A stretch of DNA of 37,021 nt from Gemmatimonadota bacterium (GTDB lineage: Bacteria; Gemmatimonadota; Gemmatimonadetes; Longimicrobiales; RSA9). Below the pieces are notes generated by a model, which was given only the letters and a program-made list of their open reading frames with translations, did not search any database and was not told the origin of the DNA. The first letter of the stretch is position 1. Every line of letters starts with the position of its first letter. The stretch is taken from NCBI GenBank assembly GCA_040905425.1, contig JBBDRO010000025.1:1-37021 (forward strand), written 5' to 3'. Of this stretch, positions 335 to 23,735 are shown one piece after another. The translations under genes and the position numbers were made by a program.

Positions 335-360
335 CGACCTCATCGACCTCATCGACCTCA
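335..360. repeat. 9-bp tandem repeat CGACCTCAT x3 at the stop codon of the TPP beta-subunit gene
   Basis: Copies at 335-343, 344-352 and 353-360; gives three in-frame TGA codons on the minus strand. Confidence 0.85.
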
Positions 361-954
361 CCCCTCCACGCCCAGCGCCGCGCGGAAGTGCCGCGACCAG
401 TCGGCCAGCGACGTCCTGAGGTAGCGCGCCTCCTCCTCCGCGCTCCGCCCGATGGGGCCCTGCTCGCCGGGGGCCATCGCCACCGCGGCGAACACGGGCC
501 CGGCGGCGGAGAGCAGGCGGGGCAGGGCCTCAGCCCAGGCTGCCGCCTGGCTGAAGCGCTCGGCCACCGGGAACCCCGCCGCGCGCGCCAGCCCCACCCA
601 GTCCACCATGGCCGCCCCCGGCACAGGCTGGTTGCCGGTGATCTCGTACGTGCCGTTCTCCAGCACCACCAGCACAAAATTCTCCGCCCCCGCCGCCGCG
701 GCCGTGACCAGCGTGCCCAGGCTCATCAGCATGCTGCCGTCGCCGTTCAGGCACACGACCCGCCGCTCCGGGCGGGCCAGCGCCACACCCAGCGCCAGGT
801 CCGCCGCGTGGCCCATGGCGCTGTCCGCCGAGGCGAAGTCCAGGTCGTGGTCGGAGAGGCGGCCCCAGGGACGCGTGGGCGCCATGGTGGCCACCACCAC
901 CTCGTTCGTGCGGAGCCGCGCCAGCGGCTCGAGCAGTTCGGGCGTGGTCAGCAC
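358..954 (-). CDS. TPP-dependent decarboxylase beta subunit (sulfopyruvate/phosphonopyruvate decarboxylase, ComE-like)
   Basis: SAMGH, TPP-binding motif GDGSMLM...VLENGTYEITG; 198 aa; adjacent to alpha subunit. Confidence 0.85.
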   Translation of the reverse strand: MLTTPELLEPLARLRTNEVVVATMAPTRPWGRLSDHDLDFASADSAMGHAADLALGVALARPERRVVCLNGDGSMLMSLGTLVTAAAAGAENFVLVVLENGTYEITGNQPVPGAAMVDWVGLARAAGFPVAERFSQAAAWAEALPRLLSAAGPVFAAVAMAPGEQGPIGRSAEEEARYLRTSLADWSRHFRAALGVEG

Positions 955-961
955 GCGCGCC

Positions 962-1510
962 TCACGTCAGGGCACCGGGCAGGAGGAGCGCCACGGGGCG
1001 TGCCGCGGAGCGCGCCTGGCGGAACGCCGCGCGCACGGCGGCGGGGACGTCGCTTTCAAGGGTGTGCCACGGGATGCCCCAGGCGTCCAGTGTGGGCAGG
1101 GTCATGAGCGCGGCGGAGTCCGCGTCGGGGCGCACGAGGTCCTCCCGCTCGTGGATGCCGGCAGCCGGATCCAGGCCGGCGGCCGCGGTCCGGGCGTGCC
1201 CCCGCCAGCCCACCAGCACCACCAGCGGGCAGCCCATGCGCGCCGCCGTGCCGCGCAGCGCGTCACCGCTCTCCAGCAGCCCCGTGTTCTGCACGCTGAC
1301 CAGCGGCACGGCGCCGCCCAGCCAGAGCCCGGCGGCCAGCCCGAAAGCTTCCCCCTCGCGGGTCACGGAGACCAGGCGGATGGCGGGGTGATCGGCCAGG
1401 GCGTGGAAGAGCGCGGCGCTGGCGTTGTCCGGCAGGCCCACCACGTGGGTCACGCCCGCCGCCTCCAGCGCCGCCACCAGCGCCCCGGCGCTCAGTGGGT
1501 CATGGACCAT
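962..1510 (-). CDS. TPP-dependent decarboxylase alpha subunit (ComD-like, TPP_enzyme_N)
   Basis: GVTHVVGLPD, VTREGEAFGLAAGLWLGG, QNTG motifs; start overlaps the DUF4159 stop. Confidence 0.85.
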   Translation of the reverse strand: MVHDPLSAGALVAALEAAGVTHVVGLPDNASAALFHALADHPAIRLVSVTREGEAFGLAAGLWLGGAVPLVSVQNTGLLESGDALRGTAARMGCPLVVLVGWRGHARTAAAGLDPAAGIHEREDLVRPDADSAALMTLPTLDAWGIPWHTLESDVPAAVRAAFRQARSAARPVALLLPGALT

Positions 1511-2340
1511 ACGGCTATGTTGATGCCCAGCGCGTACGCCGCCGGCGAGAAGGAGTTGAAGAACTGGTCATCCTCCCCCTCCCGCTCCCAGCCGTCGGCA
1601 ATGTCCGTGTTGTGCGTCATGATGACGAGCGGGCGCCCGTTGGCGTGGAAGATGGCGCGCAGGTGCGGCTCGGCGCTCTCGCGGCCGCGCTCCGAGGTCT
1701 CCACCCGACGGCCCTCGCGGCGCCAGAACTGGATGGAGGGGATCTGCGGCACCTCGTGCACCAGGTAGAGGGCGGAGAGGAGCGGATGGTCCGGCCCCAC
1801 GTCCACGATGTCGTGTTCGGGCAGGACGCGTCCGATGGCCCGCTCCCACTGCCGCCACGCCGCGTTGCCCCAGAAATCATCCACCCACAGGAAGCCGCCC
1901 TTCAGCAGGTAGTCGCGCAGGCGTACGGCCTCCACTTCGGAGAGCCTGATGGTCCCCACGTCGGACGCGAAAAGGAAGGGACAGCCGTAGAGTTCGGGGT
2001 CGGTGGGGCGCACCACGGCGTAGCCCGGCTCGCCATTGTCCCAGCGCGCGACGCGGACGTTGGTGAGCTCCTCGAAGCGGGTCATGAAGTTGTGGTCGGA
2101 GACGGGGTAGTCCGTGTTCCAGCCGTGGCCCATGGCTTCGCGACGATCGCTCTGGTAGAGGAGCCGGCAGAAGGTGAAGTCCCGGTTGACGTGGCCGCCG
2201 CGCTCGGGCAGTCCCTCGCGGATGGGGTTCGCGCGCCAGCCCCCGCCCCAGCCCTGGCGGATCTGCGCTGAGGCGGTGCCCAGCAGCACGAGCGCGCCGA
2301 CGGCGGCGAGCAGGACGGGCAGGCGGACAGGGCGGTGCAC
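1492..2340 (-). CDS. DUF4159 domain protein, secreted
   Basis: Signal peptide (ASA|Q); FTFCRLLY, WNTDYP, LRDYLLKGGFLWVDDFWG, NTDIADGWE, ALGINIAVWSMTH; GGAGG RBS. Confidence 0.85.
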   Translation of the reverse strand: MHRPVRLPVLLAAVGALVLLGTASAQIRQGWGGGWRANPIREGLPERGGHVNRDFTFCRLLYQSDRREAMGHGWNTDYPVSDHNFMTRFEELTNVRVARWDNGEPGYAVVRPTDPELYGCPFLFASDVGTIRLSEVEAVRLRDYLLKGGFLWVDDFWGNAAWRQWERAIGRVLPEHDIVDVGPDHPLLSALYLVHEVPQIPSIQFWRREGRRVETSERGRESAEPHLRAIFHANGRPLVIMTHNTDIADGWEREGEDDQFFNSFSPAAYALGINIAVWSMTH

Positions 2341-2425
2341 GGCGGGCTGGCCTCCTCCGGGCGTTGGGGGTGCAGGAAAGATAGGGGGAGGCCGCGGCCG
2401 CCCACAACGTTCGTGCGGCCCCGTG

Positions 2426-3673
2426 TCAGCCGTGGCGGCGGGCGCTCCCGCCGTCCGTGGTCATGTGGTGGCGGCCCACCGGCTGCCAGCCGGCGCGCCG
2501 GCCCGCCAGGTCGTCAATGGAGAAGAGGTGGCGAGTGCCGTCCTCCTCGCGCCGGAAGACCACCCGGGACCACCCCTGCATGGCCACCGGCCTGTACCAG
2601 TTCCGCCCCACGCGCAGCCGGTCCCCCGCAATGGCGTGGATGAGCGCGCGCTCGTAGCTGGAGCGGTCCAGCGAGGTGGTGGGGAACAGGTCATCCCAGC
2701 GGCACAGCCTGCCCACGTCCTCGTAGGCGGGCGGCCGGTCGGGCAACTCCAGCAGCACCGGCGAATCCCCGTGCAGTATGCTCTGCAGGAGGCGGCGCGT
2801 GAAGGGATCCGCCAGGTTGCGCAGCGCCGTCCCGAAATGGTCCAGCGTGCGTGCCGCGAGTTCGCGCAGGCTGAGTTGCTCGCCCGCGGTGGTGCGCCAG
2901 ACGGGCGCGTCGGGATCGGTGCGGAAGGGACTGGCCGGGTAGCAGTCCCAGCGCGCCAGCCAGCCCTGCCGGCTGGTGTGCGGCACCGGGTGGAAGCCGT
3001 CGATCACCGGCAGGCCGCGCTCGGCCAGCTCGGCCAGCTCGAAGGACGGCCAGTGCATGACCGTCCGCGCCACGGCCGCGATCACGGTGGCGGTGGCAAT
3101 CATGAGCGCCGGGCTCGGCGTGAAGTCCACCGTCACCTCAATGCGCTCGCCGCGCGGGCGCACGCCCACGCCGGTGGAGCGCGGATTGGTGGCCAGCAGC
3201 ATGACCGCCGGCGGCAGCAGGTAGCTCAATAGCAGCGCCAGCGCCTCCACCGTGCGCCCGTTGGTGCCGTCGCCGGTGAAGGAGATGTTGTAATGAGCGC
3301 TGAAGCCGGCCAGGCGCACGCTGCGGCCTGTGCGGCGCTCCCAGGCGTCCAGCTCGTCACGCGTGAAGCCGATGCCCTCCCAGAGCGAGCGGCCCGCCCG
3401 GGCCGCGCAGCCGCGCGCGATCTCGATCACGGGCGTGGCGATCTCGATGACGCCGGTATCGAAGTAGATGGCTCCACCGGTGGGCAGGTGGTAGGAGGTG
3501 CCCACGCGGTGCATGAGGGGGGCGCGCACGAAGCCGCGCGGTGAGCCGAAGAGCTTCTCGGGGCGCACCGGCCGCTCGTCCACGAACAGGGCGAATTCGG
3601 CCTCCAGCCCCATGGCCGCCAGGCGCAGGCGCTCTCCGCCAGGGGAACGATCGTGCAGCTTCTTCCGGGCCAA
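2426..3673 (-). CDS. PafA/Dop-like (glutamine synthetase/gamma-glutamylcysteine ligase fold) carboxylate-amine ligase
   Basis: GhExE motif MGLEAEF, GGAIYFDTGVIEIATP, GFSAHYNISF, RPRGERIEVTVD; TTG start after GGAGG; 5 nt from upstream stop. Confidence 0.65.
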   Translation of the reverse strand: MARKKLHDRSPGGERLRLAAMGLEAEFALFVDERPVRPEKLFGSPRGFVRAPLMHRVGTSYHLPTGGAIYFDTGVIEIATPVIEIARGCAARAGRSLWEGIGFTRDELDAWERRTGRSVRLAGFSAHYNISFTGDGTNGRTVEALALLLSYLLPPAVMLLATNPRSTGVGVRPRGERIEVTVDFTPSPALMIATATVIAAVARTVMHWPSFELAELAERGLPVIDGFHPVPHTSRQGWLARWDCYPASPFRTDPDAPVWRTTAGEQLSLRELAARTLDHFGTALRNLADPFTRRLLQSILHGDSPVLLELPDRPPAYEDVGRLCRWDDLFPTTSLDRSSYERALIHAIAGDRLRVGRNWYRPVAMQGWSRVVFRREEDGTRHLFSIDDLAGRRAGWQPVGRHHMTTDGGSARRHG

Positions 3674-3678
3674 GCGGG

Positions 3679-4326
3679 TCAGTCCTCCCGGTCCTCCTCC
3701 GGGCGGGCGTCGTCGCTCGCGTGCGCGCCCGGCTCCAGGCGCGGTTCCAGCAGCAGGTAGCCGATGTCGATGTGCAGGTGGTCGTCGGCCTCTCCGACGC
3801 CACTCCCGTACGGTCGTACCCAGAGCGCTGCTGACACCTTTCGTGCCAGCGCCGCGTAGCGCTCGATCGTCTCACGGCTCTCCAGCCAGTCGTCCCCCAC
3901 GCGGTAGACGTTGGCGGCGGTGCCCCAGCAGTGCGGCGAAGCGCCCCGCGTGAGCTGGTGGGCGGGCGTGCGGTAGCCGCCGTTCGCGGCCACGTGCACG
4001 TAGCTGCCCGCCGCCTGGCGGAACATCTCCAGGTGCGCCGCCAGCGCGCTCACCGCGCAGGGTACGTAGCGCGGGAAGAAGCGCTGCGCGGGCGCCTCCC
4101 GCACGTCCACGCCGATGAACTCCCAGAGCTTGAAGTTCGGCGTGAGCGGCAACTCGAGCGCCGTCTCCCAGGCGTCCACCCGGTAGAAGAGGGTGGGCAA
4201 GGCCCGCGCCGCGCCGTCCGCCGCCTCCAGCCGCTCCCCGGGCCGGAGGATGGCGCGCCAGTCCTGATCCAGGTGGCGCGCGTCCACGATGGGTAGCGGC
4301 AGCGCACCCTCAGGCATGCTTCCCAC
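3679..4326 (-). CDS. Peptidase M15-like (D-Ala-D-Ala peptidase/YcbK fold) protein
   Basis: NFKLWEF, GGYRTPAH, SPHCWGTAAN and HLHID match M15 SxHxxGxAxD and HxH; alternative start 4317; no signal peptide. Confidence 0.7.
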   Translation of the reverse strand: MGSMPEGALPLPIVDARHLDQDWRAILRPGERLEAADGAARALPTLFYRVDAWETALELPLTPNFKLWEFIGVDVREAPAQRFFPRYVPCAVSALAAHLEMFRQAAGSYVHVAANGGYRTPAHQLTRGASPHCWGTAANVYRVGDDWLESRETIERYAALARKVSAALWVRPYGSGVGEADDHLHIDIGYLLLEPRLEPGAHASDDARPEEDRED

Positions 4327-4368
4327 CCACGCGTTCGTAAGCGACGACGCCCCGCATCTTCCCGCGGC

Positions 4369-5208
4369 TCATCCGTCCGCCTGCCCGGTCACGTGTTCGT
4401 AGACGGCCTTCGAGATGGCGGCGATGGTGCCCTGCCGCTGGCCCGCTCCCTCCTCCCACTCCGTGAGCACCACCAAGACGTACGGCTCACCGCCATTCAC
4501 GTACACGATGCCGGCGTCGTGGGCCACGGTGGACATCTCGCCCGTCTTGTGGGCCACTCGTGTTTCGGCCGGCAGCCCCGCCGGAATGCCGCCGCGGAAT
4601 TCCTGGCCATGCAGGATGTCCAGCATGTGCTCGCACGCCTCCTCCGAGATGGCCCGCCCCTCCTCGATGGCCCGCAGGGCCTGCGCCAGGCCGCGGGCCG
4701 TGACGCGGTTGTTCACACCTGCCTCCCAGGCCGCCTCATCCTCCACGCCGCGCACGAATTCCATGCCGCCGAGCTCCAGGCGGCGGAGCGTGGCCCGCAC
4801 CCGCTCCGGGCCCAGGACGTCCACCAGCAGATTGGTGGCCAGGTTGCTGCTCGTGGTGATCATGTGCCGCGCCAGCTCCTCCACGGGGAGCATCTTGCCG
4901 CGCGCCTCGTGGACCGCGCTGTTGGCGTCACGCGCGGCGGCCAGGCGGTAGGGGCTGCCGTCGTACACGGAAAGAAACCGGTTGCGCACGTGGATGCGGG
5001 ACTGGAGCTCCAGGAGGCCGTCCGCCACCGCGTCGAACACCGCCAGCAGCACGGGAATCTTGACCGTGCTGGCGGCGTGGAACCAGCGTTCGGCGTTCAG
5101 CGTCCAGCCGGTGGCGTGGGCGTAGTCGTGCAGCGCCACGGCCACGGCGGTGGCGCCTGCATCCGCGGCAATCCGCTCGATCTGTTCGCGCAGGGAGGTC
5201 TCGGTCAT
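4369..5208 (-). CDS. Class A beta-lactamase-related serine hydrolase (Beta-lactamase2 family)
   Basis: SxxK (AASTVK), SxN (SSN), KTG (HKTG), HDAGIV; 279 aa from ATG 5208; no signal peptide. Confidence 0.9.
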   Translation of the reverse strand: MTETSLREQIERIAADAGATAVAVALHDYAHATGWTLNAERWFHAASTVKIPVLLAVFDAVADGLLELQSRIHVRNRFLSVYDGSPYRLAAARDANSAVHEARGKMLPVEELARHMITTSSNLATNLLVDVLGPERVRATLRRLELGGMEFVRGVEDEAAWEAGVNNRVTARGLAQALRAIEEGRAISEEACEHMLDILHGQEFRGGIPAGLPAETRVAHKTGEMSTVAHDAGIVYVNGGEPYVLVVLTEWEEGAGQRQGTIAAISKAVYEHVTGQADG

Positions 5209-5258
5209 TCTCGGTGCGGTCGGGTCAGCGGGCTCGCCCCGCCGGCGCGGGCCATCCT

Positions 5259-5274
5259 TGCATTTTCGGCGCCA
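5259..5274 (-). promoter_or_regulatory. Candidate sigma54 (-24/-12) promoter for the serine hydrolase-M15-PafA-like genes
   Basis: Minus strand TGGCGCCGAAAATGCA, GG-N10-GC spacing, about 50 nt upstream of ATG 5208. Confidence 0.45.
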
Positions 5275-5338
5275 CGGGCATGGGTGGCGTGACACGCGCT
5301 CTGCGCCCACGCCGCGCGGGGAACCACCGCAATCCGCG

Positions 5339-5719
5339 TCAGCGGTCCAGGCGCTCGATCCGCGTGTCCCCGCCCACGAAGACGTTCAGCAGCGCGCTCA
5401 CCACCGAGACCACGATGGCGCCCAGTAAAGCGGCGCCGAAGCCTGAAACCGTGAAGCCCAGCCCCAGCGCGCCCGACAGGGCGGCGGTGAGCTGCAGCAT
5501 GAGCGCGTTCAGGACCAGCAGGAAGAGCCCCAGCGTGAGCACCACCAGCGGACAGGTGAGCACCACCAGCAGCGGCCGCACGAGCGCGTTCACCGCCCCG
5601 AAGACCAGGGCCACGCCGAGCAGGCTCCAGCCGCTGCCACCGTGCTGGATGCCGGGTATGAAGCGCACCGCCACCCAGAGAGCGGCGGCCGTGACGAGGA
5701 GGCGGAGGAGAAAGCGCAC
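5339..5719 (-). CDS. 4-TM YvlD/DUF360 'phage holin family' membrane protein
   Basis: NALVRPLLVVLTCPLVVLTLGLFLLVLNALML signature; GGAG RBS plus GTG. Confidence 0.9.
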   Translation of the reverse strand: MRFLLRLLVTAAALWVAVRFIPGIQHGGSGWSLLGVALVFGAVNALVRPLLVVLTCPLVVLTLGLFLLVLNALMLQLTAALSGALGLGFTVSGFGAALLGAIVVSVVSALLNVFVGGDTRIERLDR

Positions 5720-5828
5720 AGCGTCTCCGGGCAGCGGGTCGAAAGGTCGTGGCGCAACGTGGGGTGGGGCCGCGTTTCAGGCAACGCCCCGGCCTCCACC
5801 TCCGCTCGACGGTGCGCTTGGCACGGGC

Positions 5829-5857
5829 TTGACAGGGGGATGCATCTCCGACACAAT
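5829..5857 (+). promoter_or_regulatory. Candidate sigma70 promoter
   Basis: TTGACA (5829-5834), 17 nt, CACAAT (5852-5857). Confidence 0.55.
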
Positions 5858-6107
5858 GGCGCTACCGGAAGCTGCGAGTGCTCGTGTGACGCCGGGCGTC
5901 GCGCCAGGCAGCCTCCGGATGGCCGGTCCATACGGACCGCCACGAGCCGTGTCTGGCGCCGCTCAATGGAGCGCAGGGGGGAATCGGCGGGGCGTAGGGG
6001 TGGCGGGAAGGGAACGGGGGCGAGCCGGCGTGACGCCAGGCATGGCGAGCGGACGATCACGGTCCGCGCAGACCGATACCCCATTCCCCCGTCACGAGGA
6101 GGACCCC

Positions 6108-6669: not shown

Positions 6670-9600
6670 ATGGCTCCCCGTGTCCCTGTCCTCACCATCA
6701 CGCTCGCGCTGGCCATGCTGTTTGTGGCGGGCCCCGGCGGCGCCCAGGAGACCGCCCCCCCGCGACCTGGCCCATGCCTTCGGCGTGGGCTGGCTCGTGC
6801 TGGACCGTGACGGCGACGCCGTGGTGGACGCACTGGCCGCGCGTGTCCTCCTGCCGCAGGCCGCCACGGAGGCGCATGCCGCCACGGCCGCCAACGTGGC
6901 GGCGCGGCTGGGCTTCGAGACGGCCGGGCTGGAGCCGGGGCTGGCCGACATCTTTGCTCCGGACGCCACCTATGCGGCGCCCGTGGTGCTGGTGGGGGTG
7001 GACGCCGTGCCGGGCGCGGCCGCCGCGCGCGCCGGCCTGGCTCCCGGGCAGGGCGCCGTGGCGTTGCTGCCGCCGGACGACGCACTGGGTGCCGGCGGAC
7101 TGCTGCTCGTGGGCCATGACGCCACGGGCCTGCTGGCGGTCGGCGAGTACGTAGCGGCGCGCCATCCCGCGGTGTGGGCGCCGGACGGCACGGCGTGGGA
7201 TGCGGTGGGCCGCAAGGTGGACGCGTTCCTGGCGGGCCGGAGCATCAGCGCCGATTCCGCGCGCCTGCAGCGCGTGGTGGTGGAGGCCGGCCGCGCCGGC
7301 CCGGTGAGCGCCACGCTGGTGGTGCGGCTGGGGGATCGGACGGCGCTCCGCGGGGCTGCGGCGGCGCTGGCGGGGCGGGACACCACGGCGGCGGATTCGG
7401 CGGCGGCCGACAGCGCCGCGGCGGATCCCGTAGCGGCGCCCGACACGGCGGCCGCCGACACCGCGGCCGCCGCCTCGCCCGCCGACAGCGGCGCCGCCCG
7501 GCCGCGGCCGCGCGGCCCGCTAGCCCTCTCCGAGCTGGAATTCACCGACCTGCACCGCCTGGACATCCGTCTCGAAGCCCCCGACTCCACCGCGCTCGTG
7601 CGCGTGCTGCCGCGCCGCCCCTGGCGGGCCCGCGCCGCACCGGAGGGCAACGCGGGCAGTGTCTCGCCCTTCACCCTCTCCCGCCTCTACAGCACGGACG
7701 GGCTGCTCCGGGACACGAATGGGGACGGGCTGCCGGATCGCATGGACGCGGTCTTCTTCGTGAGCGGGGGCGAGGCCGCCCCCCAACTGGCCGACCTGGC
7801 TGCCCGCCTGGGGCTGGAGAGCACCGGCATCCGCCTGCCGCTGGCGCGCGCCGCGGGCACGGAGGATCGTCCGGAAGCGGCGGGCGTTCCGATTGCCTTC
7901 GGGATCGACGGCTACCAGGCACAGCGCCTGCGCGAGAAAGGCCGCCTGCACATGCCCGCACCCGGCGCCGGCCAGGGCTTCCTGGAGCTGGTGCCGCGCG
8001 CCTTCGGTGGCGGTACCGGACTCGTGATCGGCGCGGCGGACGCGCGTGGACTCGAGGCGGTGACGGGCGTCGTGGCTTCCCGCATGCCGTATCTGTGGAC
8101 GTACGGCAAGGGGGAGTACGAGCTGGCGGACGTGGAGACGGAGGTACGGCGCTTCTTCCAAGCGGTGGAGGCGCCGGGGCAGGTTGCGCTCGGCGTCTTC
8201 AAGCTGCGCCAGTGGCTGGCGCGCCTGGGGGATGCCCCGGTGGAGGCGCTGGCCGTGGAGCTGGCGGCCGAGGAGGCGCCGGCTGGGCTGGAGGCCCACT
8301 TGAGCGCGCTGCTGGCGGCGCACTACCCGGAGGCGGAGACCGAAGTCACCACGTTCACCACGGGCTTCGGCGTGGGTCAGGAGATCTTCACCCAGGAGCT
8401 GGCCATCCCCTGGGAGGTGGACACGGCGCGGGCGCTGCTCTCCAGCCAGGTCTACCCGGCCGTGCGCGCGGGGCAGGGTGGGCGCGTCGAGCTGCGCGTG
8501 AGCGAGCCGCCCGAGTTGCGCGCCCGCCTGGTGGCGGAGATCCGTGATTCGCTGCGTGCGCGCGGCGCCGATCCGGCCGCCTGGGACGTGGACGTGCTGA
8601 GCGCCTACAAGCAGGGCTACTCGTGGCTGGTGGATGACGTGCTGCCGGAGCTGCGTGAGCTGCCCGTGGACAGCATGGCCATCACCTATCACACGCTGGA
8701 GGAGTCGGAGGAGGTGCGCTGGCAGACCATCGCGGCGGACACGCGGTGGCTGCAGGAGCTCTATCCCGTGGACGCCGTGCTGGCGCGTGAGCTGGCAATT
8801 TCAGACTCGGTGATCACCTTCACGCCCACCCGCGCACCGGATCCCATCTACCGCGTGCGGGCGTTCGACGCGGCGGGTCGGGAGCTGCTGGAGCGCACCT
8901 TCACGCCGCGCTATGTGGTGCGTCCCTTCTTCGACCTCTTTCCCGAATACGAGCAGATCCGCGTCACGACCGGCTGGCTCACCGCCGAGAGTGGCGGGCA
9001 GACGCTGGTGGACCGCCGCATCCGCACCGATCCCGAGGCTTTCTGGGACCTCCTGCAGACGGACATCTACGGGCGTATCGTGGACTACGTGGTGGACGTG
9101 CAGGATGGCAGGCCCTCCGGACGAAACGCGCCCTACTTCGACGAGTTCCGGGTGGACCTCACCCTCTCCGAGCCGAACTACCGCATCGGCGTGGACGAGG
9201 AGGTGATCTCCAGCCTGGAGGCGCTGCACGAGGACATCTACTTCGAGACGCTCACGCTCTTCGACCTCATCGGCAACCGCTACGGCGTGGGCGGGCTGAG
9301 CTACCCCGGCCGCATCCTGCCCTGGATCCACGAGGGGACCGGCGCACCGGGCACGGCGCGCATTGCCTTCACGGGGAAGGAGCGCGCCGCCCCGGAGCTG
9401 GTGCTGCGCGCGACCGTGGCGGGGCAGGAGCCGACGGTGCGCCGCTACGGCCTCTCCTCCCCCGGTACGGAGACGCCGCAGCTGCGCGGTCTCTCGGCAC
9501 GCGCCGGTGAGGCGGGCATCGGCAGCCTCCTCTTCGAGGTGGAGGCGGTGGATTCCCTGGACCGCTACGAGGAGTACCGCCTACGCAGCTCGGAGGCGGG

Positions 9601-10975
9601 CGTGGATCGTACCTTCCTGTCGGTGGAGATGCTGGCCGGCATGGTGGAGGCGCTCGGCGCGCTGCACGCGGACGGGGTCCTGGAGCAGCGCCTCTCCTTC
9701 GACCGGGTAGGCGAGCTCCGCTTCCGCTTCATCCTGGAAGACACGGCTTCGGACTTCACCCGCACGAGCGTGCTGCCGCGCAGCCGCAATCCGCTGAGCA
9801 CTGCGGCGCGCCGCCTCTACGCCGGGGACTGGCGCCACACGGGTGAGCGCCTCGTGCAGTGGGAGACGCCCATTCCGCCCGCCGAGAGCGATTCCATCCT
9901 GGCGCGCCTGGCCACCTTCCCCGGCGTCCGCGTCTACCAGGTGGCGGAGTCCTTCCTGGGGCAGCCAGTATGGGCCGCGGACTTCCACGCGGCCGAGATG
10001 CCGACCTACGTGAGCGAGCTGAAGCTCACGGCGCAGAAGCCCACGCTCTTCCTCTCCGGCCGGCAGCACGCCAACGAGGTGTCGAGCACCAGCCATCTGC
10101 TGCGCCTGGGTGAGCTGCTGGCCACCGACTCCGCCTACCGGGCGCTGCTGCGCGATGTGAATGTGGTGCTCCATCCCATCACCAATCCGGACGGCGCGCG
10201 GCTGGCCTACGAGATGCAACTCGACAACCCGGACTTCATGCTGCATGCGGGCTACCTGGGCGCACTCGGCGTGGACGCCACCTCCGGCTCGGGCGGCAGC
10301 GATCCGCTCTATCCCGAGTCGCACGCCCGCCCGCGCATCTCGGGGACGTGGCTGCCGGACATCTACATCAACATGCACGGCTACCCCAGCCACGAATGGG
10401 TGCAGTACTTTGCCGGCTACAGCGCCTGGGTGCGCTCCCGCGCGGGCGGGCAGCGGGACTGGTGGCTGCCGCGCGGTTGGTTCATTCCCGGCTTCTCCTG
10501 GGTGGACGACGAGCGCTACCCGGAGATCAAGGAGGCGCAGTACGCCGTACTGGACTCGATCGCGGCGGCCATCACCGGGGATCCCGAAATCGAGGCCATG
10601 AACCAGCGTATGTACGTGCGCTACCGGAAGTACGGCGAACAGGACCGGGAGGGTTTCCGGGAAAACTTCCGCAATGGCCTGCTGGTCTACGAATCGCTGC
10701 GGGGGCGGCGCGTGTCCGGCTCTGGCGCGTCGAGCCCGCGCGTGACCTGGTTCAGCGTCACCACCGAGGCGCCCGACGAGACGGCGCGGGGGGACTGGCT
10801 GGAGCTGGTGGCGCGGGCCGGGCTGGCCCATTCGAGCGCGCTGCTCCGGTACCTTGCGGCGGGGGAGGTCGAGGTGGATCGGGAGGCGGCAGCGGTGCCG
10901 GGTGGCGTGGTGCGGACCGTTGGCCGCGAGCGGCCCGTGCTGCCACCGGAGCCACCGGACAACGGCGGTTCGTAA
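6670..10975 (+). CDS. Large secreted M14 zinc carboxypeptidase-family protein, about 1430 aa, apparently frameshifted at C7 run 6755-6761
   Basis: GGAGG RBS and signal peptide from ATG 6670 in one frame, body in the +1 frame; C-terminal GRQHANE, NPDG, NMHGY zinc motifs. Confidence 0.85.
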
Positions 10976-17355: not shown

Positions 17356-19098
17356 TCAACCGCCGCCCGGGATGGCGATGTGGCAGCGGCGGCAGGTCAG
17401 CTTGTTGCGATCGGCCATGCGCGTGGGGTCGAAATCGGGGCCGTGCGGGCTGATGCGCCAGCCGCCCGTGGCCGAATGGCACTGCTGGCAGTCCCGCTCG
17501 GCGTGGCAGGTGGCACAGCTCTCCAGACCCTGGCGGGCGGCCTGGGCGTGCTGCAGCAGCCAGAGCGGCAGGGCGTTGTGGAAGGCAACGTCCAGGCGGC
17601 CCTCCGATCCCAGCCCCACGCTCTCGTGGCAGCTCTTGCAGAAGGACTGGGTGTTGTGGCAGGTGCTGCATTCGGTCTGCCGGCTGTAGGCGTCCGTGGC
17701 GTGCCGCTGCACGAAATTGGGCGCGTGGAAGCCCGAACTTTCCGGCGCGTCGTGGCAGTCGCTGCAGAATGTGCTGGTGTGGCAGCTGGAGCAGCTCGGC
17801 TGATCGGCGGCCGCCGCGCCGCCGTGCGCCGTGGCAAAGCCCGGCGGGTGGAGCAGTGCCGCGCGCTGGCTCTCCCCCTGCTGCGGCGCCATGGGGCGCG
17901 CCAGCTCGGGGTGGCGTACGGTGGCGGCCCGCGGTGCCGCGTCCGGGGCGCCCGGCGTCGCGGTCACGCGCCAGCCGCTGATCTGCACACCCCCGGGGCC
18001 CGCGGGAAGCATGCGGATGAGTTCCCGGCCACCCTCGCCGATGTGACAGGCATTGCAGCTCGGTCGCGCGTGGCAGTTGGCGCACGTCTGGATGCGCGCG
18101 GTGGCGTCCTGGCGGTGGGAATAGAGCCAGCCCTGTTCCTCGTGGCTCTCGGGCAGCGGATACACGGCTACGCGCTCCAGGGAGGCGGCCAGCGCGCGCG
18201 GATCGCTGGCGAGCGCCGCGATGGCGGGGATATCCGCGGCGTTCAGATGGCAGCGCGAGCAGCTCTCCGCGGCGTGGCAGTTGGCGCACGTCTGGATGCG
18301 CGCGTTGGCGTCCTGGCCGTGGGCATAGAGCCAGCCCTGTTCCTCGTGGCTGTCCGGCAGGGGATAGACGGCCACGCGCTCCGAGAAGGCCACCAGCAGG
18401 CGCGGGTCGCTGCCGAGCGCCGCGATGGCGGGGACATCCGCCGCGTTCAGATGGCAGCGCGAGCAGCTCTCCACGGCATGGCAGACGGCGCACTGTTGGC
18501 GCGCGAACGCTTCACTGGGCGCGTGGTCGAAGGCGTAGTCCTCGGCCGCGTGTGAGGACGGTTCGGGGAAGGCGGCAATGTTCCAGGCGGCCAGCTCGTC
18601 CGCCTCCGCCAGCGGCATGTGGCATTGCCGGCAGTCCGCGTCCGCCGCCAGGTGCTCCGGCGCCTCGTGCGCGTGGCAATCCAGGCACCAGGCCGGTTCG
18701 GCGGCGGCCACGGCCATGAAGGCCGTGCTGCCATCCGCGGCGTGGCAGGTGTGGCAGGTGAGCGAGTCACCCCCCGCCCGGGCCGCGTCCCGGTGCGTGC
18801 CGTGGGTAAAACGCAGGTTGTCCGGATCGTCCTGAAAGCCGGACCAGGTCACCGTGGGCTGCACGGCGCCGTCGTGGCAGGCCGCGCACAGTTCCTGGTC
18901 CGGGAAACCCATGGACTCCTGCCCCGTGGGCAGCTCGCCGTGGCAGCCGGAGCAGGTGGGAAAGAGCGCGGCGTGCTGCGCGTGCGGGAAAGGCTGGCGT
19001 TCCTGCTGCGCAGCCGCCCACAGACCGGTGCCTCCCAGCCCCAGGAGCGCCACCACCGCCAGCGCCACCAGCCGGCCCGTGGTCACGGCGCCCCTCAC
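17356..19098 (-). CDS. Secreted 18-heme c-type cytochrome
   Basis: Signal peptide (WAAA|Q), 18 CxxCH by manual count; GTG start overlaps upstream TGA after GGAGGT; alternative start 19086. Confidence 0.93.
   Translation of the reverse strand: MRGAVTTGRLVALAVVALLGLGGTGLWAAAQQERQPFPHAQHAALFPTCSGCHGELPTGQESMGFPDQELCAACHDGAVQPTVTWSGFQDDPDNLRFTHGTHRDAARAGGDSLTCHTCHAADGSTAFMAVAAAEPAWCLDCHAHEAPEHLAADADCRQCHMPLAEADELAAWNIAAFPEPSSHAAEDYAFDHAPSEAFARQQCAVCHAVESCSRCHLNAADVPAIAALGSDPRLLVAFSERVAVYPLPDSHEEQGWLYAHGQDANARIQTCANCHAAESCSRCHLNAADIPAIAALASDPRALAASLERVAVYPLPESHEEQGWLYSHRQDATARIQTCANCHARPSCNACHIGEGGRELIRMLPAGPGGVQISGWRVTATPGAPDAAPRAATVRHPELARPMAPQQGESQRAALLHPPGFATAHGGAAAADQPSCSSCHTSTFCSDCHDAPESSGFHAPNFVQRHATDAYSRQTECSTCHNTQSFCKSCHESVGLGSEGRLDVAFHNALPLWLLQHAQAARQGLESCATCHAERDCQQCHSATGGWRISPHGPDFDPTRMADRNKLTCRRCHIAIPGGG
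18068..18484 (-). repeat. Intragenic 204-bp (68-aa) tandem duplication carrying two heme motifs per unit
   Basis: TGGCAG anchors at 18071, 18275 and 18479; 56/66 aa identical between units. Confidence 0.95.
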
Positions 19099-20558
19099 GA
19101 TCCACCTCCCCCGCCGCGCATCCCCGGATCCGCGCCCACGGCCCACTCCAGTTGCAGCGTGGCCCGCACCTGCGTCCAGTCCACCGTCCCCGGCGTGGGG
19201 CTCTCCAGGTGACGGTAGGCCGTGGCGCTGCCGCTCAGCCGCGTGTCCGCATTCAGCCGCCACGCGGCGTTGGCCCCGAGGCCGGCCACCACGCCTTCAC
19301 CGAGGGAGAATTCGCGAATGCTCTGGAAGAGCGCGCCGTGCGCGCCCACGTAGCCCGTCTCCCCCCAGTCGCGGCGCAGCGCGGCGTCCACCTCACTCTG
19401 CGCAGCGCCGAAGTTGATGTGGCGCCAGTAGGCGCCCGAGGCCATCCACGCCTCAGCGGGGCGCCACCATGCGTCCGCACCCACCCGCCAGCCGTTCGTG
19501 CGCAGCATGGCCGACGCCAGCCCGGCGTGCGCCTCGTCGTAGCTCCGCCAGGCACCCGTGAGGCGCACCCCCAGCTCATCGGCGCGCCCCCACGCCAGCG
19601 TGCCGCTCCCTTCACCGTAGCCCACGGGCGAGAACACCCCCCAGATGGTCCACAGCTCGAAGAAGGGGCGGTAGCGGCGTACCTCGGCCGCGGCGGAGAA
19701 ACCGTGCGCCAGCGGGACGTCGGCACGCAAGCGGGCCTCGTTCAGCCAGCCGGCGCCCAGGTCGGCCTGCAGTGCGCCACTCACGGCTCCGCGGCCGAAG
19801 GACACGCGGGCGTCCGCCGCCAGGCGCTCCGAGTAGAGGGCGCCTCGATCGGTGCGGATCTCCCGCTGGTAGAGCAGCGAGCCGGCCATGCCCGGTGCGG
19901 GACGCACGCGCGCCAGCGCACCCAGGATGTAGGCGCGCTCGGAGGGGAAGAATGGCTCCACGCCCTCCAGGGCGTCGTCGTGATACTCGTTGGTGCCGCG
20001 CATGAGACTCCACCCGCCGTAGGCCTCCACGGTGAGCTCGTCCATGGGCCGATAGGCCAGCGCCAGCCCATCGAAGTTGTACCAGCCGAGCGAGGAGGTC
20101 TGCCACTGGCGGCCGAGCCGTGCCCGGTAGCTGGGGCGGTCCACTTCCACGTAGGCGGAGAGGACGTCCAGGGGGTCATCGGCCTCGGGCCAGAGCGCGT
20201 CGGCCTGGCCCACCGCGGCGCGACCGCGGACATGAGCATAGGCGCGCACGCCCTGACCAAAGCCCCAGGCACTGGCACGCAGGTCCTGCATGAGCGGCAC
20301 GGTGGAGAGCCGCGGCCCCGCGCCCAGATAAAAGCACCAGGGTAGGCCCTCCGTACACCGCACCACCGAACCGTCCGGTGCCAGGCGGAGCGTGCCGGTC
20401 CCGAGCGCGTTCTCCATCGGGATGCTGTCCTTGACCGCCGTGGCCAGTTCGGCGTAGCGGGCCGTGCTGACGCCCGTGACACGCACGCCCTGGCCCGCTG
20501 CGGGCGCCACCGTCACGAGCGCCGCGATGGCCGCCACCGACCCGATCCTTGCACTCAT
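19095..20558 (-). CDS. Probable outer-membrane beta-barrel (porin) of a porin-cytochrome cluster, 487 aa
   Basis: Signal peptide (PAAG|Q); alternating strands AYVEVD, ARLGRQW, FDGLALAY, TVEAYGG, VRATLQLEW; no heme motifs; sits between two multiheme genes. Confidence 0.75.
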   Translation of the reverse strand: MSARIGSVAAIAALVTVAPAAGQGVRVTGVSTARYAELATAVKDSIPMENALGTGTLRLAPDGSVVRCTEGLPWCFYLGAGPRLSTVPLMQDLRASAWGFGQGVRAYAHVRGRAAVGQADALWPEADDPLDVLSAYVEVDRPSYRARLGRQWQTSSLGWYNFDGLALAYRPMDELTVEAYGGWSLMRGTNEYHDDALEGVEPFFPSERAYILGALARVRPAPGMAGSLLYQREIRTDRGALYSERLAADARVSFGRGAVSGALQADLGAGWLNEARLRADVPLAHGFSAAAEVRRYRPFFELWTIWGVFSPVGYGEGSGTLAWGRADELGVRLTGAWRSYDEAHAGLASAMLRTNGWRVGADAWWRPAEAWMASGAYWRHINFGAAQSEVDAALRRDWGETGYVGAHGALFQSIREFSLGEGVVAGLGANAAWRLNADTRLSGSATAYRHLESPTPGTVDWTQVRATLQLEWAVGADPGMRGGGGGS

Positions 20559-20560
20559 CC

Positions 20561-22279
20561 TCACCGGCTGCCTCCTCCCACAACGCCCTTCGACCAGTCG
20601 GTTGCGTGGCACACGGCGCAGGGCCGCTCCGGATAGTGGTCCCGCTGCGCCTCGTGACAGGTGAGGCAGACGGGCCTGGTGGGCGGCAGCGGCGCCACGA
20701 CGGCGTTCTCGTGGCAGCCCGCCCCGCCGCAGCCCAGGTGCACGGCGCGGTCGTGCACCGGGCCGGGCTCGGCGGACTGCGGCGTATGGCACGCCTGGCA
20801 CATGCTGCCGCCCACGAAGTCGTGATGGTCCTCGTGGCACGAGGCGCACGTCACGGCCGCGGCGAACGTACCCGGGGTGGTGTGGCAGGTGGTGCACGCC
20901 ACCTGCTCGTGCCAGCCGTGCGTGAACGGGAGCGCGCGGTTGCGGGGCGCGTCCCAGACGGACAGGTCGAGCAAAACGGATTCCTGGTACCTGCCGGCGA
21001 TCTCACTCGACGTGTGGCAGCGCTGACACCGGTCGCGCATGCGTGGCGCGTGGTGGCACGCCTGGCAGTCGGCGGCGGTGCGCACCACGAGCGCGCCGTG
21101 GGCCGTGGCGGTGCCATGGCAGGCGGTACACGCCACGCTGGCGTGACGGTCGTGCGAGAACGGCTCTCCACCCAGACGCGGCACCTGTTGGAGCAGGAAG
21201 CCCAGGCCGCGCAGCAGCGGGGCGGCCAGCGTGGCGGTGGGCAGCATGCCCATGCGCTCGATGCCCGCCGCCGGATGGAAGCTCTCCCCTCCCGCCGGTG
21301 GATGGGGCGCCGTGCCGCGCGGGCGGTTGGGCCGATCCAGCGTCGCCGGGTCGTGGCAGGCCACGCAGGTCACGCCCGGCGCGTTCCAGGTATGGGCGGC
21401 GTGGCAGTCGGTGCACTGTGCCAGCGCGCCGGGTTCCAGGCCTCGATGCCAGGGGCTCAGGGTTTCGGGCGTGCTATGACAGCCGGCCGAGGCGCACGAC
21501 TGCACGGCCTGCGCGGCGGTTTGCTGCTGATGCGGGTCGTGACACACGCCGCAGGACCCGCCGTGCGGTTCGTCCTCCGGGAAGTTGGCCAGCATGGCGC
21601 GCATCTGATGGCACGCCGTGCACTCGGGTCGGCGGGGCTGCAGCGCATTGGCCAGGCTGTCCGCCGGCGTCCCGGGCGCCACCGGCCGGTTGAAGTTGTG
21701 GCACGCCACGCAGTGGATGGTCATCTGCCCCATGGCGCCCAGACGCACCGTGGTATCCTCGTGGCAGCCGGCCTGGCCGCAGGTCTGACTGGTGGCGGTG
21801 AAAACGTGGATGGAGGCTGAGTGGCACTCCACGCAGCGGAGTCCCTCCAGCGACGGGTCGTCCGATTCCATGTGCACGCGGTGGCCGGCCGAGGCGGCAA
21901 TGAGCGTCCATTCCTCCGGATTGCCGTCGATATGGCACTCGGCGCAGCGCTCGTTGGGCACCTCCGCGTGCTCCTCGATGGTCTCGGGCTGCTCGATGAT
22001 CTGGCTGAGGGCCATGCGGCTGCGCGCCACGAACGTGGGCTGGTGGCAGGCCTTGCAGCCCAGGCCCCGGTGGGCACTCTGCTCGAAGCGGGAGAAGGGG
22101 TCCTGCATGAGGTGGCAGGACATGCAGAAGTCGTTGTCGTGCTGGACGTAGTCGTACGTGCGGTACATCAGGATGCCGGCCACCACGGCCCCCGCCACGA
22201 CCAGAGTCCCCAGGACGGCCATTACGCTTCTGGGCAGGTTGCGCAGCGTGCCGCCCATGCGGTCCAGCAGCGCCCTCAT
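20561..22279 (-). CDS. Membrane-anchored multiheme cytochrome c with N-terminal NapC/NirT-like domain (17 CxxCH + 3 CX4CH)
   Basis: N-terminal TM helix then NDFCMSCHLM (CxxCHxM) and SAHRGLGCKACH, typical of NapC/NrfH; 572 aa. Confidence 0.9.
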   Translation of the reverse strand: MRALLDRMGGTLRNLPRSVMAVLGTLVVAGAVVAGILMYRTYDYVQHDNDFCMSCHLMQDPFSRFEQSAHRGLGCKACHQPTFVARSRMALSQIIEQPETIEEHAEVPNERCAECHIDGNPEEWTLIAASAGHRVHMESDDPSLEGLRCVECHSASIHVFTATSQTCGQAGCHEDTTVRLGAMGQMTIHCVACHNFNRPVAPGTPADSLANALQPRRPECTACHQMRAMLANFPEDEPHGGSCGVCHDPHQQQTAAQAVQSCASAGCHSTPETLSPWHRGLEPGALAQCTDCHAAHTWNAPGVTCVACHDPATLDRPNRPRGTAPHPPAGGESFHPAAGIERMGMLPTATLAAPLLRGLGFLLQQVPRLGGEPFSHDRHASVACTACHGTATAHGALVVRTAADCQACHHAPRMRDRCQRCHTSSEIAGRYQESVLLDLSVWDAPRNRALPFTHGWHEQVACTTCHTTPGTFAAAVTCASCHEDHHDFVGGSMCQACHTPQSAEPGPVHDRAVHLGCGGAGCHENAVVAPLPPTRPVCLTCHEAQRDHYPERPCAVCHATDWSKGVVGGGSR

Positions 22280-22393
22280 TGCGCTCGCCCGCCCAGCCAG
22301 AGGCCCGGGGGTTCCCCGGGACCGGCCGTTTCCGTTCGTTGCATCCGGTATCGCCTCCCAGCCCCGGAAACCCGTCCCTTCGAATGACGCTTG

Positions 22394-22422
22394 AACGTAC
22401 ATCGCCGCGCGCCATGCGACAA
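22394..22422 (-). promoter_or_regulatory. Candidate sigma70 promoter for the leftward cytochrome-porin operon
   Basis: Minus strand TTGTCG, 17 nt, TACGTT in the divergent intergenic region. Confidence 0.3.
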
Positions 22423-22565
22423 TTCGATATGTTCCCCACAAGCCTTCAAGGAAATGCGGACAGACAACGCGGCGCCTACACCACTATCCTTGCGCACGTC
22501 GCGACGCGCCGCAGGGGTCGCGGTACGCGCGTAAAGCCGCTCACGAGGACCGAGGAGATACCGGT

Positions 22566-23018
22566 ATGATGATGCCCCGTAGCCTGCTCACCGCTCTGGC
22601 CGTGGTGGCCGCCGCCGGTCTCACCGCCTGTGGCTCGGAGCCCGAGGACGCCACGCCGATCGGTGGCGCGCCGGCGGATGCCAGCGCCCTTCCTGCGGCG
22701 GAAGTGCGTGCCGAACTCGACGCGGGGAACGCGGCGTACCGCAAGGACGATCACGAGACCGCGCTGGCCCACTACACGAAGGCCACCGAGATGGCGCCGG
22801 AGCTGGCGGCGGCGTGGTTCGGGGTGTCCATGGCCCAGGAGGCGCTGGGCAACGCGGAGGCCGCGCAGGAAGCCATGCAGAAGGCCATGGAGTTGGCGCC
22901 CGCCGACGAAGCCGGTGACCTGCAGAGCATGCCGCGGGACGCTGATCACGCGCCCGGCGGCGCCATGCCGCCCGCCACCATGCCGGACGACACCATCCAC
23001 GGCGGCACGGGCGGCTGA
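22566..23018 (+). CDS. TPR-repeat lipoprotein
   Basis: GAGGAG RBS, lipobox LTAC, two TPR-like units (GNAAYRKDDHETALAHYTKA; AWFGVSMAQEALGNAEAAQEAMQKA); Met/His-rich tail. Confidence 0.85.
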   Translation: MMMPRSLLTALAVVAAAGLTACGSEPEDATPIGGAPADASALPAAEVRAELDAGNAAYRKDDHETALAHYTKATEMAPELAAAWFGVSMAQEALGNAEAAQEAMQKAMELAPADEAGDLQSMPRDADHAPGGAMPPATMPDDTIHGGTGG

Positions 23019-23025
23019 GGTGCGC

Positions 23026-23478
23026 ATGCGCGCGCGCGCCATGGGCGTTCTGCTGAGCGGGCTCGCCGCCGCCGGCTGCGAGGAGCACGAGTTCCATCCG
23101 CCCGACCGTGCGGCACAGGTGGCCGTGGCCGATTCGCAGTACGCGCAGCTGCGCTTCGACACCATTGCGTGGGCCGCCGAGGACGCACGCATCGAAGTCG
23201 GCAATACCACGTTCGCCGCGCACTGCACGCGCTGTCACGGGCCGCTGGGCAGGGGCGGTACGGAGTACGTGGTCGAGCAGGACCTGGACGTGCCGTCGCT
23301 GGTGGAGCCCGGGTGGCCGTACGAGGGGGACACCGACGCGGTCCGTCGACGCGTCTGGGTGGGCCACCCCCAGGGCATGCCCACGTGGGGCGTGGCGCGC
23401 CTGACCCTGCGCGAGGTGGATGCCGTGGCGCACTACATCGTGGCGCAGTTGCGGCCGGAGGTGCTCGGCGGCGGCTGA
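23026..23478 (+). CDS. Monoheme class I cytochrome c lipoprotein
   Basis: Lipobox-like AAGC, one CTRCH, distal GMPTWG (Met ligand). Confidence 0.85.
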   Translation: MRARAMGVLLSGLAAAGCEEHEFHPPDRAAQVAVADSQYAQLRFDTIAWAAEDARIEVGNTTFAAHCTRCHGPLGRGGTEYVVEQDLDVPSLVEPGWPYEGDTDAVRRRVWVGHPQGMPTWGVARLTLREVDAVAHYIVAQLRPEVLGGG

Positions 23479-23594
23479 GCCACTCATTCATCGCGCACGA
23501 GGCGCCGTCCGGCTGGACCGGGCGGCGCCTCGTTACGTCTGTAAGCGACGCTGCAGCGCACCCTCCCGGCGCTCGCCAGCGGTGATCCGGGGGT

Positions 23595-23631
23595 GCGCGA
23601 AATCGCGCGCGGCATCGCGCGAAAACGCGCG
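23595..23631. promoter_or_regulatory. Tandem palindromic sites, candidate upstream activator sequences for a sigma54 activator
   Basis: GCGCGAAATCGCGCG (23595-23609) and GCGCGAAAACGCGCG (23617-23631), 14/15 identical, 22-bp period. Confidence 0.55.
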
Positions 23632-23676
23632 TTTCGGGCCACGAAGGACGCCGCGTCATCGTCGCTTGAATCCGTA

Positions 23677-23689
23677 TAAGTGGTTGTTA
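23677..23689 (-). promoter_or_regulatory. Candidate IHF binding site
   Basis: TAACAACCACTTA versus WATCAANNNNTTR, 8 of 9 defined positions, between candidate UAS and -24/-12. Confidence 0.5.
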
Positions 23690-23719
23690 TACATTGCTTT
23701 GGCTTCTTTCGAGCAGGCG

Positions 23720-23735
23720 TGGTCCCGCCCTTGTA
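23720..23735 (+). promoter_or_regulatory. Candidate sigma54 promoter with non-canonical -12 GT
   Basis: TGGTCCCGCCCTTGTA, GG-N10-GT with TTG, about 50 nt upstream of ATG 23787. Confidence 0.45.

Follow-up and report, generated by a model that had tools for sequence, protein, structure and literature searches.

What does an enzyme of the PafA/Dop lineage do when its gene lies beside two genes for peptidases of cell-wall type? The question is raised by a Gemmatimonadota genome (GCA_040905425.1, 96.66% complete), whose contig JBBDRO010000025.1 supplied the 37,021 nt analysed here (hereafter the window; G+C content 69-78%). Positions 2426..5208 hold three genes, here called A, B and C, which code for a PBP-A-like serine hydrolase, an M15A-like protein and a PafA/Dop-like enzyme, respectively (Table 1). 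The cassette is real, conserved and unstudied, and one of its members represents a PafA/Dop-lineage family that is new. As to its role, the interpretation that we favour, while regarding the case for it as evenly balanced, is cytoplasmic processing of murein peptides, in which C would make or break a gamma-glutamyl amide on a peptide and not on a protein.

The three genes are close together, with 42 nt between the stop of A and the start of B and 5 nt between the stop of B and the start of C, as described in an earlier sequence-only reading of this DNA. The longest open reading frame (ORF) of A, 4369..5310, could start at a GTG at 5310 and would then yield 313 residues; the conserved start is the ATG at 5208. 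Direct reading of the N-termini of A, B and C revealed no hydrophobic leader, in line with the earlier claim that none of them has a signal peptide. A scan of positions 1400-5900 for promoters and terminators found nothing on the minus strand.

Gene C has no Pfam or NCBIfam model. When 8,000 candidates were scored, 3,812 clusters fell within E<=0.001 and make up its family, all of them annotated as hypothetical and without any precomputed Pfam domain; at 50% identity there are 416 representatives. Neither B nor C matched anything beyond chance in Pfam or NCBIfam, and profile searches of both against the sequences of the PDB gave no meaningful match. The structure model of C, generated from a 26-member alignment, is confident (predicted local distance difference test (pLDDT) 91.7, predicted template modelling score 0.90). 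Structural comparison placed Dop first (5lrt, score 21.3, root-mean-square deviation 3.7 over 341 aligned residues, model residues 18-401), followed by further Dop entries (18.7-20.7), PafA (4bjr, 18.4), YbdK (1tt4 and 1r8g, 17.3 and 17.0, model residues 11-325 only), plant glutamate-cysteine ligase (GCL, 14.5) and glutamine synthetase (GS, about 9-10). This ranking bears out the proposed fold of GS and gamma-glutamylcysteine synthetase (GCS). Because the Dop and PafA matches extend to model residues 397/401 and those of YbdK stop at 325, C has a predicted PafA/Dop-type C-terminal domain: as modelled, it is a GS/GCS catalytic domain followed by a small domain that is otherwise found only among the PafA/Dop matches.

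Criteria for the carboxylate-amine ligase superfamily were defined by Iyer et al. 2008 (PMC2588565). The model of C displays the corresponding six-stranded saddle fold. The motifs previously cited for C are all found in the window copy, namely GLEAE (22-26), YFDTGVIEIATP (70-81), HYN (127-129) and RIEVTVD (177-183), and their key residues are invariant or nearly so in the 26 members. Core strand 1 carries the GhExE/Ex[EH] motif as G22-L-E24-A-E26, with G22, E24 and E26 conserved in at least 90% of these 26 sequences; the acidic residues of strands 2/3 are D72 (invariant) and E77 (at least 90%), and the [HD]x[NH] motif of strand 4 consists of H127 (invariant) and N129 (at least 90%). The arginines of strand 5 and of the loop before it correspond to the invariant R172, R174 and R177 and to R165, which aligns with the Arg of the PafA/Dop NTR motif.

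We mapped the residues of C onto PafA/Dop with a MAFFT L-INS-i alignment, at approximately 13% identity, together with the motifs. Four blocks align with the same spacing: G-L-E-A-E-F of C with G-x-E-T-E-Y of PafA/Dop, Y70-F-D72-x4-E77-x2-T-P with Y-x-D-x4-E-x2-T-P, H127-Y-N129 with H-E-N, and N163-x-R165...R172-x-R174-x2-R177-x-E179 with N-T-R...R-x-R-x2-R-x-H. The Mg ligands of Dop are reported as Glu8, Glu10, Tyr92, Glu99, His155 and His241, and its catalytic residue as D94 (PMC8599861); they align with E24, E26, Y70, E77, H127, E179 and D72 of C, all invariant or at least 90% conserved in the 26 members. The last metal ligand of C is thus a Glu as in GS/GCS, not a His as in PafA/Dop. The catalytic Asp that PafA and Dop carry next to the strand-2 Tyr is present in C (Y70-F-D72), and its distance to E77 is +5, as in Dop. 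PafA Arg193 is described as essential, and the alpha-loop as a ligase/hydrolase discriminator important for the contact of PafA with its protein targets (PMC7947786). C retains the counterpart of Arg193 as R165, at the point where the alpha-loop segment ends. At the low identity of this alignment, C is gapped at the Dop-loop of approximately 40 residues and at the alpha-loop segment (a 44-column gap), of which only the Arg is kept.

The family is nonetheless distinct at the level of profiles. The PF03136 Pup_ligase hidden Markov model (HMM) matched none of the 26 members at E<=10, no match to PF04107 (GCS2) was found in the family, and hhalign of the family against five canonical PafA/Dop proteins of the same phylum aligned 23 columns (probability 27%, E 6.6e-4). 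Since C lacks the PF03136 match, the linkage to pup and the loop features, we did not file it as PafA or Dop; the C family is a sister family to them. In a quick tree of C (81 rows, midpoint root, with support from the Shimodaira-Hasegawa-like approximate likelihood ratio test as the only support measure), the window copy sits on a long terminal branch (0.83, median 0.11), with all its catalytic residues intact.

Gene A was proposed to be an SxxK serine hydrolase, and this assignment holds. The window copy has STVK, SSN and KTG motifs and matches PF13354 (Beta-lactamase2) at E 5.7e-52, and STxK, SSN, RGVED and KTGE are kept in at least 95% of 73 sequences, i.e. the window copy and 72 orthologues. 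The acidic pair of RGVED lies near the omega-loop position. The protein reaches 115.9 bits on the NCBIfam bla_class_A model (NF033103), below the curated cut-off of 200, and judged by its sequence it is a member of the PF13354 family only, not a curated class A beta-lactamase. Its best solved relative is PBP-A Tll2115 (2j9o) of Thermosynechococcus elongatus, with E 3.1e-21 over residues 4-271. PBP-A is described as a DD-carboxy/endopeptidase of muropeptides (PMC11189452). The orthologue alignments begin at residues 1-6 of the 279-residue form of A, and its residue 4 aligns with residue 18 of the crystallised PBP-A chain; an alignment that begins so early leaves no room for a signal peptide.

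For gene B, the M15-like assignment of the sequence-only reading is probable as far as the fold is concerned, and needs an amendment at the metal site. A 24-sequence alignment shows invariant GGYRSPxH, S130-x-H132-C-W-G-x-A-x-N139 and D182-H183-x-H185-x-D187 motifs, represented in the window copy by S130-x-H132-CWGTAA-N139 and H183-x-H185. This departs from the LAS/M15 zinc triad (H-x6-D...H within SxHxxGxAxD and HxH): Asn139 replaces the zinc-ligand Asp in 24/24 sequences, a change that the sequence-only reading did not remark. The structure model (pLDDT 79.4) gave only weak Foldseek matches (E>=0.029), nearly all of them LAS proteins, and the fold neighbours include VanX, VanXY and VanY-type enzymes. 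PF08291 (Peptidase_M15_3) was matched by 12 of 24 B homologues (best E 1.7e-4), window B matches PHROG endolysin family 894 (E 7.5e-5), and a language-model atlas, used as a lead only, places B beside 'Peptidase M15A' clusters (0.96). On this evidence, B is probably M15A-like in its predicted fold, and its zinc binding and cleavage are putative.

To our knowledge, the only roles described for PafA and Dop are those of writer and eraser of pupylation. C might be a ligase or deconjugase that modifies proteins with an unrecognised tag encoded elsewhere, either a new Pup analogue or the C-terminal Glu of some protein. No protein-tagging members of the fold are known other than its closest structural relatives, whose match includes the C-terminal domain, and C retains the catalytic Asp on which PafA/Dop chemistry specifically relies. 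Yet the genome of the window has no match to PF03136 and none to Pup (PF05639) at E<=1, consistent with the earlier statement that no Pup system accompanies the trio, in a search in which neither UBact nor the ARC ATPase had a model of its own. One gene matches PF00227; as this model also matches genes of the E. coli and B. subtilis controls, the gene is HslV-like, and no 20S-type proteasome was found. Beyond the neighbours described below, no conserved flanking ORF of at least 50 residues was found in 9 loci and none of at least 70 residues in 80 loci, with ORFs shorter than 50 residues and UBact left unscreened. The alpha-loop for target binding also seems to be missing from C. Canonical PafA/Dop proteins occur in 5 of 151 sampled genomes of the phylum, where they belong to clusters of the order ARC-Dop-Pup-PrcB-PrcA-PafA whose Pup has GGE as its last residues, quite unlike the trio locus (Table 1). 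We hence regard a protein-tagging role as highly improbable; that C acts on a peptide is part of the murein-peptide interpretation, and is as evenly balanced as the whole.

The conservation of the trio was assessed in the window genome and 40 relatives, a set that includes four unpublished genomes (G015, G016, G018 and G026), and in the best 80 loci of a scan with one genome per species, in which relatives of C were found in at least 529 genomes; many of these loci end early at contig ends. Among the 41 related genomes, 17 have C, the same 17 have B, all 17 have an adjacent high-identity A orthologue, and the order is always A-B-C. By family, and with the window genome left out, C is found in 8/24 (f1), 0/8 (f2) and 8/8 (f3) genomes. 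In other species, A-B-C is colinear in 76 of the 80 loci; L038 and L091 end at the contig end after B, and L077 is cut just before C. Colinearity extends to a metagenomic locus of 47% GC (L107), whose C is 40% identical to that of the window, so that the conservation called for by the earlier reading was found at all these distances. The trio is one self-contained, operon-like cassette, inherited as a unit.

The hosts are mainly Gemmatimonadota, with 12 Comamonadaceae in addition, the latter including the cultured Ramlibacter montanisoli, R. cellulosilyticus, R. paludis, Ramlibacter sp. AN1133 and Caenimonas sedimenti. The 12 Comamonadaceae C proteins form one clade (support 99) within a supported set (99) that also holds four Gemmatimonadota rows, a placement that fits one transfer between phyla, in either direction. 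C was detected in only 6 of 151 genomes of a phylum-wide sample, and the cassette is therefore accessory and patchy. A and B are absent from L106, where C diverges most among those examined (36% identity). There, a convergent gene for a Peptidase_M74 protein (a MepA-like murein endopeptidase; 28.8 bits, cut-off 25) follows C, a further neighbour of cell-wall type; other genes of this locus are listed in Table 1.

Searches for fusions of C yielded two matches to longer proteins (P0392, 827 residues, and P0391, 733 residues) and no recurrent fusion. P0392 carries PF00753 (metallo-beta-lactamase fold), covers 38% of C and may be a chimeric gene call. An apparent fusion of B with C, P0140 (648 residues), seems to be a read-through product with a frameshift. 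A defence function was considered as well and rejected, PADLOC matching none of A, B and C.

We identified recurrent neighbours by clustering the flanking ORFs of the 80 loci and annotating them with Pfam and NCBIfam. The most frequent is a Mur ligase gene that scores as mpl: on TIGR01081, four examples reached 432.8-464.1 bits (cut-off 388.7), and their MurC scores are below the MurC cut-off. It lies within 5 kb of the trio in 25 of the 80 loci, upstream and divergent in 7 (80-121 bp from A) and downstream and convergent in 18 (97-4,852 bp), and the mpl-linked loci are spread over several separate clades of the C tree. Among the 17 relatives with the trio, mpl is found within 2.5 kb in five (G011, G026, G030, G036 and G040), and ldcA (PF02016, Peptidase_S66) adjoins the trio in two (G011 and G018). 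The order in G011 is mpl, ldcA, then the divergent A-B-C genes. In one Gemmatimonadaceae clade of 20 rows, genes for a family-5 solute-binding protein (SBP_bac_5, 16 loci) and a permease (19 loci) of a peptide importer lie directly upstream of A and end 41-75 bp short of it. In 15 loci of this clade, the next gene after C, at 6-337 bp, codes for a DUF1697 protein and lies between C and the convergent mpl (Table 1). The linkage to mpl, ldcA and a peptide ATP-binding cassette (ABC) importer lends independent support to the class of targets suggested by the sequence-only reading, a cell-wall precursor or muropeptide.

These neighbours also bear on another explanation, namely that the cassette serves to produce or modify a small metabolite of gamma-glutamyl peptide type that has nothing to do with peptidoglycan (for instance a thiol, a signalling compound or an antibiotic-like peptide), with C as the ligase and A and B as peptidases for maturation or self-protection. 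According to Iyer et al. 2008, all described non-Pup branches of the superfamily make small molecules, e.g. glutathione-type peptides and glutamine (PMC2588565). C keeps the set of ligase motifs, with the strand-6 spacing described below, the cassette is patchy and has apparently moved between phyla like accessory metabolic cassettes, and a gamma-glutamyltranspeptidase gene lies upstream in one Ramlibacter locus. However, no biosynthetic neighbour recurs in the 80 loci, be it a nonribosomal peptide synthetase, an exporter or a regulator; the recurrent ones are mpl, ldcA and the importer, and both A and B are of peptidoglycan-peptidase families. We consider such a metabolite unlikely, while keeping it in view.

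The same partners might also remodel precursors in a van-like manner. In such a scheme, cytoplasmic DD-peptidases would strip D-Ala-D-Ala from the UDP-MurNAc-pentapeptide and C would add another group, with resistance to antibiotics or lytic enzymes as the outcome. VanX is a cytoplasmic LAS enzyme, and VanX, VanXY and VanY-type proteins are among the fold neighbours of B; A is related to a DD-peptidase of beta-lactamase fold, and a ligase gene that is joined by two genes of DD-peptidase-like type parallels the logic of vanHAX. Against this stand the score of A, far below the curated beta-lactamase cut-off, the lack of a recurrent two-component regulator or dehydrogenase beside the trio, and linkage to the salvage genes mpl and ldcA, not to murF or ddl. 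Taken together, these points make precursor remodelling quite unlikely.

Turning back to murein-peptide processing, the genome contents agree with the linkage, within limits. An mpl above the cut-off was found in 16 of 17 trio genomes and 11 of 24 others, and PF02016 (LdcA) in 17 of 17 and 13 of 24, figures that are descriptive and overstate the signal as kin are not independent, both genes being common anyway. The trio genome without mpl, G015, is 75% complete. An idea that B has displaced LdcA was rejected in view of the ldcA genes in 17/17 trio genomes. Several further observations weigh against the interpretation. The importer is linked to the trio in one clade only and therefore counts as one event. 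In the window genome itself, mpl is on contig C54 and ldcA on C87, neither being linked to the trio, and the genes flanking the trio in the window (DUF4159, a PF04020 membrane protein, a split thiamine pyrophosphate (TPP) enzyme and a giant M14 protein) are not conserved with it in the loci of 8 relatives or in the 80 others. The 12 Comamonadaceae loci have no recurrent cell-wall neighbour, Peptidase_S11 adjoining the trio in one only. At the sole exception to colinearity, L073 on an Acidobacteriota-labelled contig, there are 511 bp upstream of C, and no B. Strand 6 of C, E179-V-T-V-D183, is invariant at both ends, but is one residue shorter than the Ex[RK]x2D or [QH]x4D pattern. Finally, MurT_C was found in none of the 41 relatives, which removes the simplest reason for a D-isoglutamine deamidase; such an activity on the cell's own wall is thereby weakened, and amidated imported peptides would be the possible substrates.

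If the murein-peptide interpretation is correct, the substrates would be stem peptides derived from peptidoglycan, either salvaged from the wall of the cell itself or taken up from outside. A could be a PBP-A-like DD-peptidase that trims D-Ala-terminated peptides at their D-Ala-D-Ala end, and B might handle another bond of a D-amino acid, i.e. L-Ala-D-Glu, meso-diaminopimelate (mDAP)-D-Ala or a cross-link, or else bind such a peptide. C, as a predicted ATP- and Mg-dependent enzyme, would phosphorylate a small peptide at a gamma-glutamyl carboxylate or amide, as do GS, GCL, PafA and Dop with their substrates. It may form the L-Ala-D-Glu(gamma)-mDAP bond and so rebuild the tripeptide for Mpl, cleave the gamma-D-Glu-mDAP bond in a Dop-like reaction, or deamidate an amidated peptide. 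The products would feed the Mpl/LdcA murein-peptide salvage route, or be taken from it.

The Glu on which PafA and Dop act is carried by a peptide; it has a free alpha-carboxylate, and its gamma-carboxyl is joined to the amine of a diamino acid. The closest small-molecule counterpart of this Pup-Glu(gamma)-Lys isopeptide would therefore be the L-Ala-D-Glu(gamma)-mDAP bond. By this analogy, we tentatively propose, as a possibility about which we have considerable doubts, that C is the first member of the PafA/Dop lineage with a non-protein substrate, forming or cleaving the gamma-D-glutamyl-diamino-acid bond of murein stem peptides in an ATP-dependent manner. In E. coli, it is MpaA that cleaves the gamma-D-Glu-mDAP bond. 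If the proposal is true, a missing enzyme class is added to peptidoglycan recycling, and protein tagging by Pup may have been recruited from cell-wall peptide chemistry.

Whatever its substrate, a family that is structurally close to PafA/Dop and lacks Pup, the proteasome and, by alignment, the target-binding loop suggests that the lineage has another, unstudied job, and it provides an outgroup for studies of the origin of protein tagging. Should the link to mpl and ldcA reflect function, three new enzymes would be added to murein-peptide salvage in abundant soil bacteria, the Gemmatimonadota, in which we know of no study of this pathway. As the family is present in Ramlibacter and Caenimonas strains that are harmless and in culture, its function is directly testable.

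The window holds other genes of interest (Table 1). They include two very large ORFs, each with a Peptidase_M14 zinc carboxypeptidase domain and neither conserved alongside the trio, a bacterial protein whose family takes its name from a eukaryotic enzyme, and a cluster of multihaem cytochrome genes with a pair of regulatory genes in its midst.

Table 1. Coordinates of the genes and loci discussed; positions are those of the window unless another locus is named.
Feature	Position	Strand	Details
Gene A, class-A-beta-lactamase/PBP-A-like serine hydrolase, predicted cytoplasmic	4369..5208	-	279 aa from ATG at 5208
Gene B, M15A/LAS-like metallopeptidase-fold protein	3679..4326	-	215 aa; ATG at 4317 gives a 212-aa form
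Gene C, PafA/Dop-like carboxylate-amine ligase-fold enzyme	2426..3673	-	415 aa, TTG start
TPP enzyme, its N- and C-domains encoded by two genes	358-1510	-	downstream of the trio
PF04020 'phage holin 4_2' membrane protein	5339-5719	-	four transmembrane segments; directly upstream of A
Peptidase_M14 zinc carboxypeptidase ORF	6680-10975	+	1431 aa, E 1.4e-11; opens with a long Ala-rich low-complexity sequence
MATCAP (microtubule-associated tyrosine carboxypeptidase) family protein, PF08014	14341-16203	+	620 aa, E 5.9e-83
Multihaem c-type cytochrome gene cluster	17356-31514		MtrC/MtrF-like, c7 and c3 domains; a cytochrome b561 gene is included
Histidine kinase	25240-26730		within the cytochrome cluster
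Sigma-54 response regulator	26709-28070		within the cytochrome cluster
Peptidase_M14 zinc carboxypeptidase ORF	32269-35088	+	939 aa, E 2.6e-23
DUF1697 (PF08002) gene, example	L095 7261-7902		
Locus of the most divergent C homologue	L106 4986-11200		C without A and B, followed by a Peptidase_M74-like gene, weak CHAP-domain gene, 4'-phosphopantetheinyl transferase, AMP-binding enzyme
Canonical ARC-Dop-Pup-PrcB-PrcA-PafA cluster	L020 1-4323 and L025 1-4251		genome G049, another family of the phylum; 65-aa Pup ends QRGGE

A literature search, which did not cover subscription journals and supplements, found no described pathway with this trio, as the sequence-only reading had supposed, and, among the papers listed on peptidoglycan recycling, no GS-fold enzyme in that pathway. 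Compared with the nearest known systems, each protein has its own peculiarities. C differs from Dop and PafA (PF03136) in its partners, two cell-wall-type peptidases, with pup, prcAB and ARC not linked to it, and in its apparent lack of both a Dop-loop and an alpha-loop segment. It differs from the YbdK/GCS2 ligases (1r8g, 1tt4), which align with the catalytic part of the model only, in its extra PafA/Dop-type C-terminal domain. Iyer et al. 2008 described two other non-Pup families, one fused to a transglutaminase-like domain and one linked to GATase-like peptidases or Aig2 (PMC2588565), neither of which matches the trio. A shares with PBP-A (Tll2115) the class A beta-lactamase fold and the SxxK, SxN and KTG motifs; unlike PBP-A, it has no leader peptide, is predicted to be cytoplasmic and carries, close to where the omega-loop Glu lies, the conserved acidic pair of RGVED. 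B differs from the M15A zinc DD-peptidase of Streptomyces albus (1lbu) and from MepK-type M15 enzymes by the Asn in place of the zinc-ligand Asp in all 24 sequences, by the absence of a signal peptide and by approximately 60 extra residues at the N-terminus. Murein-peptide salvage is represented by Mpl, LdcA and MpaA in E. coli, and murein-peptide catabolism in B. subtilis by dpp-ykfABCD. The salvage enzymes MpaA (M14), YkfC (NlpC/P60) and LdcA (S66) are not homologous to A, B or C; it is with mpl and ldcA that the trio is linked and co-occurs. The muropeptide importers MppA/Opp and YejBEF-YepA (PMC9790009) likewise have a comparable counterpart in the family-5 importer encoded directly upstream of the trio in one clade.

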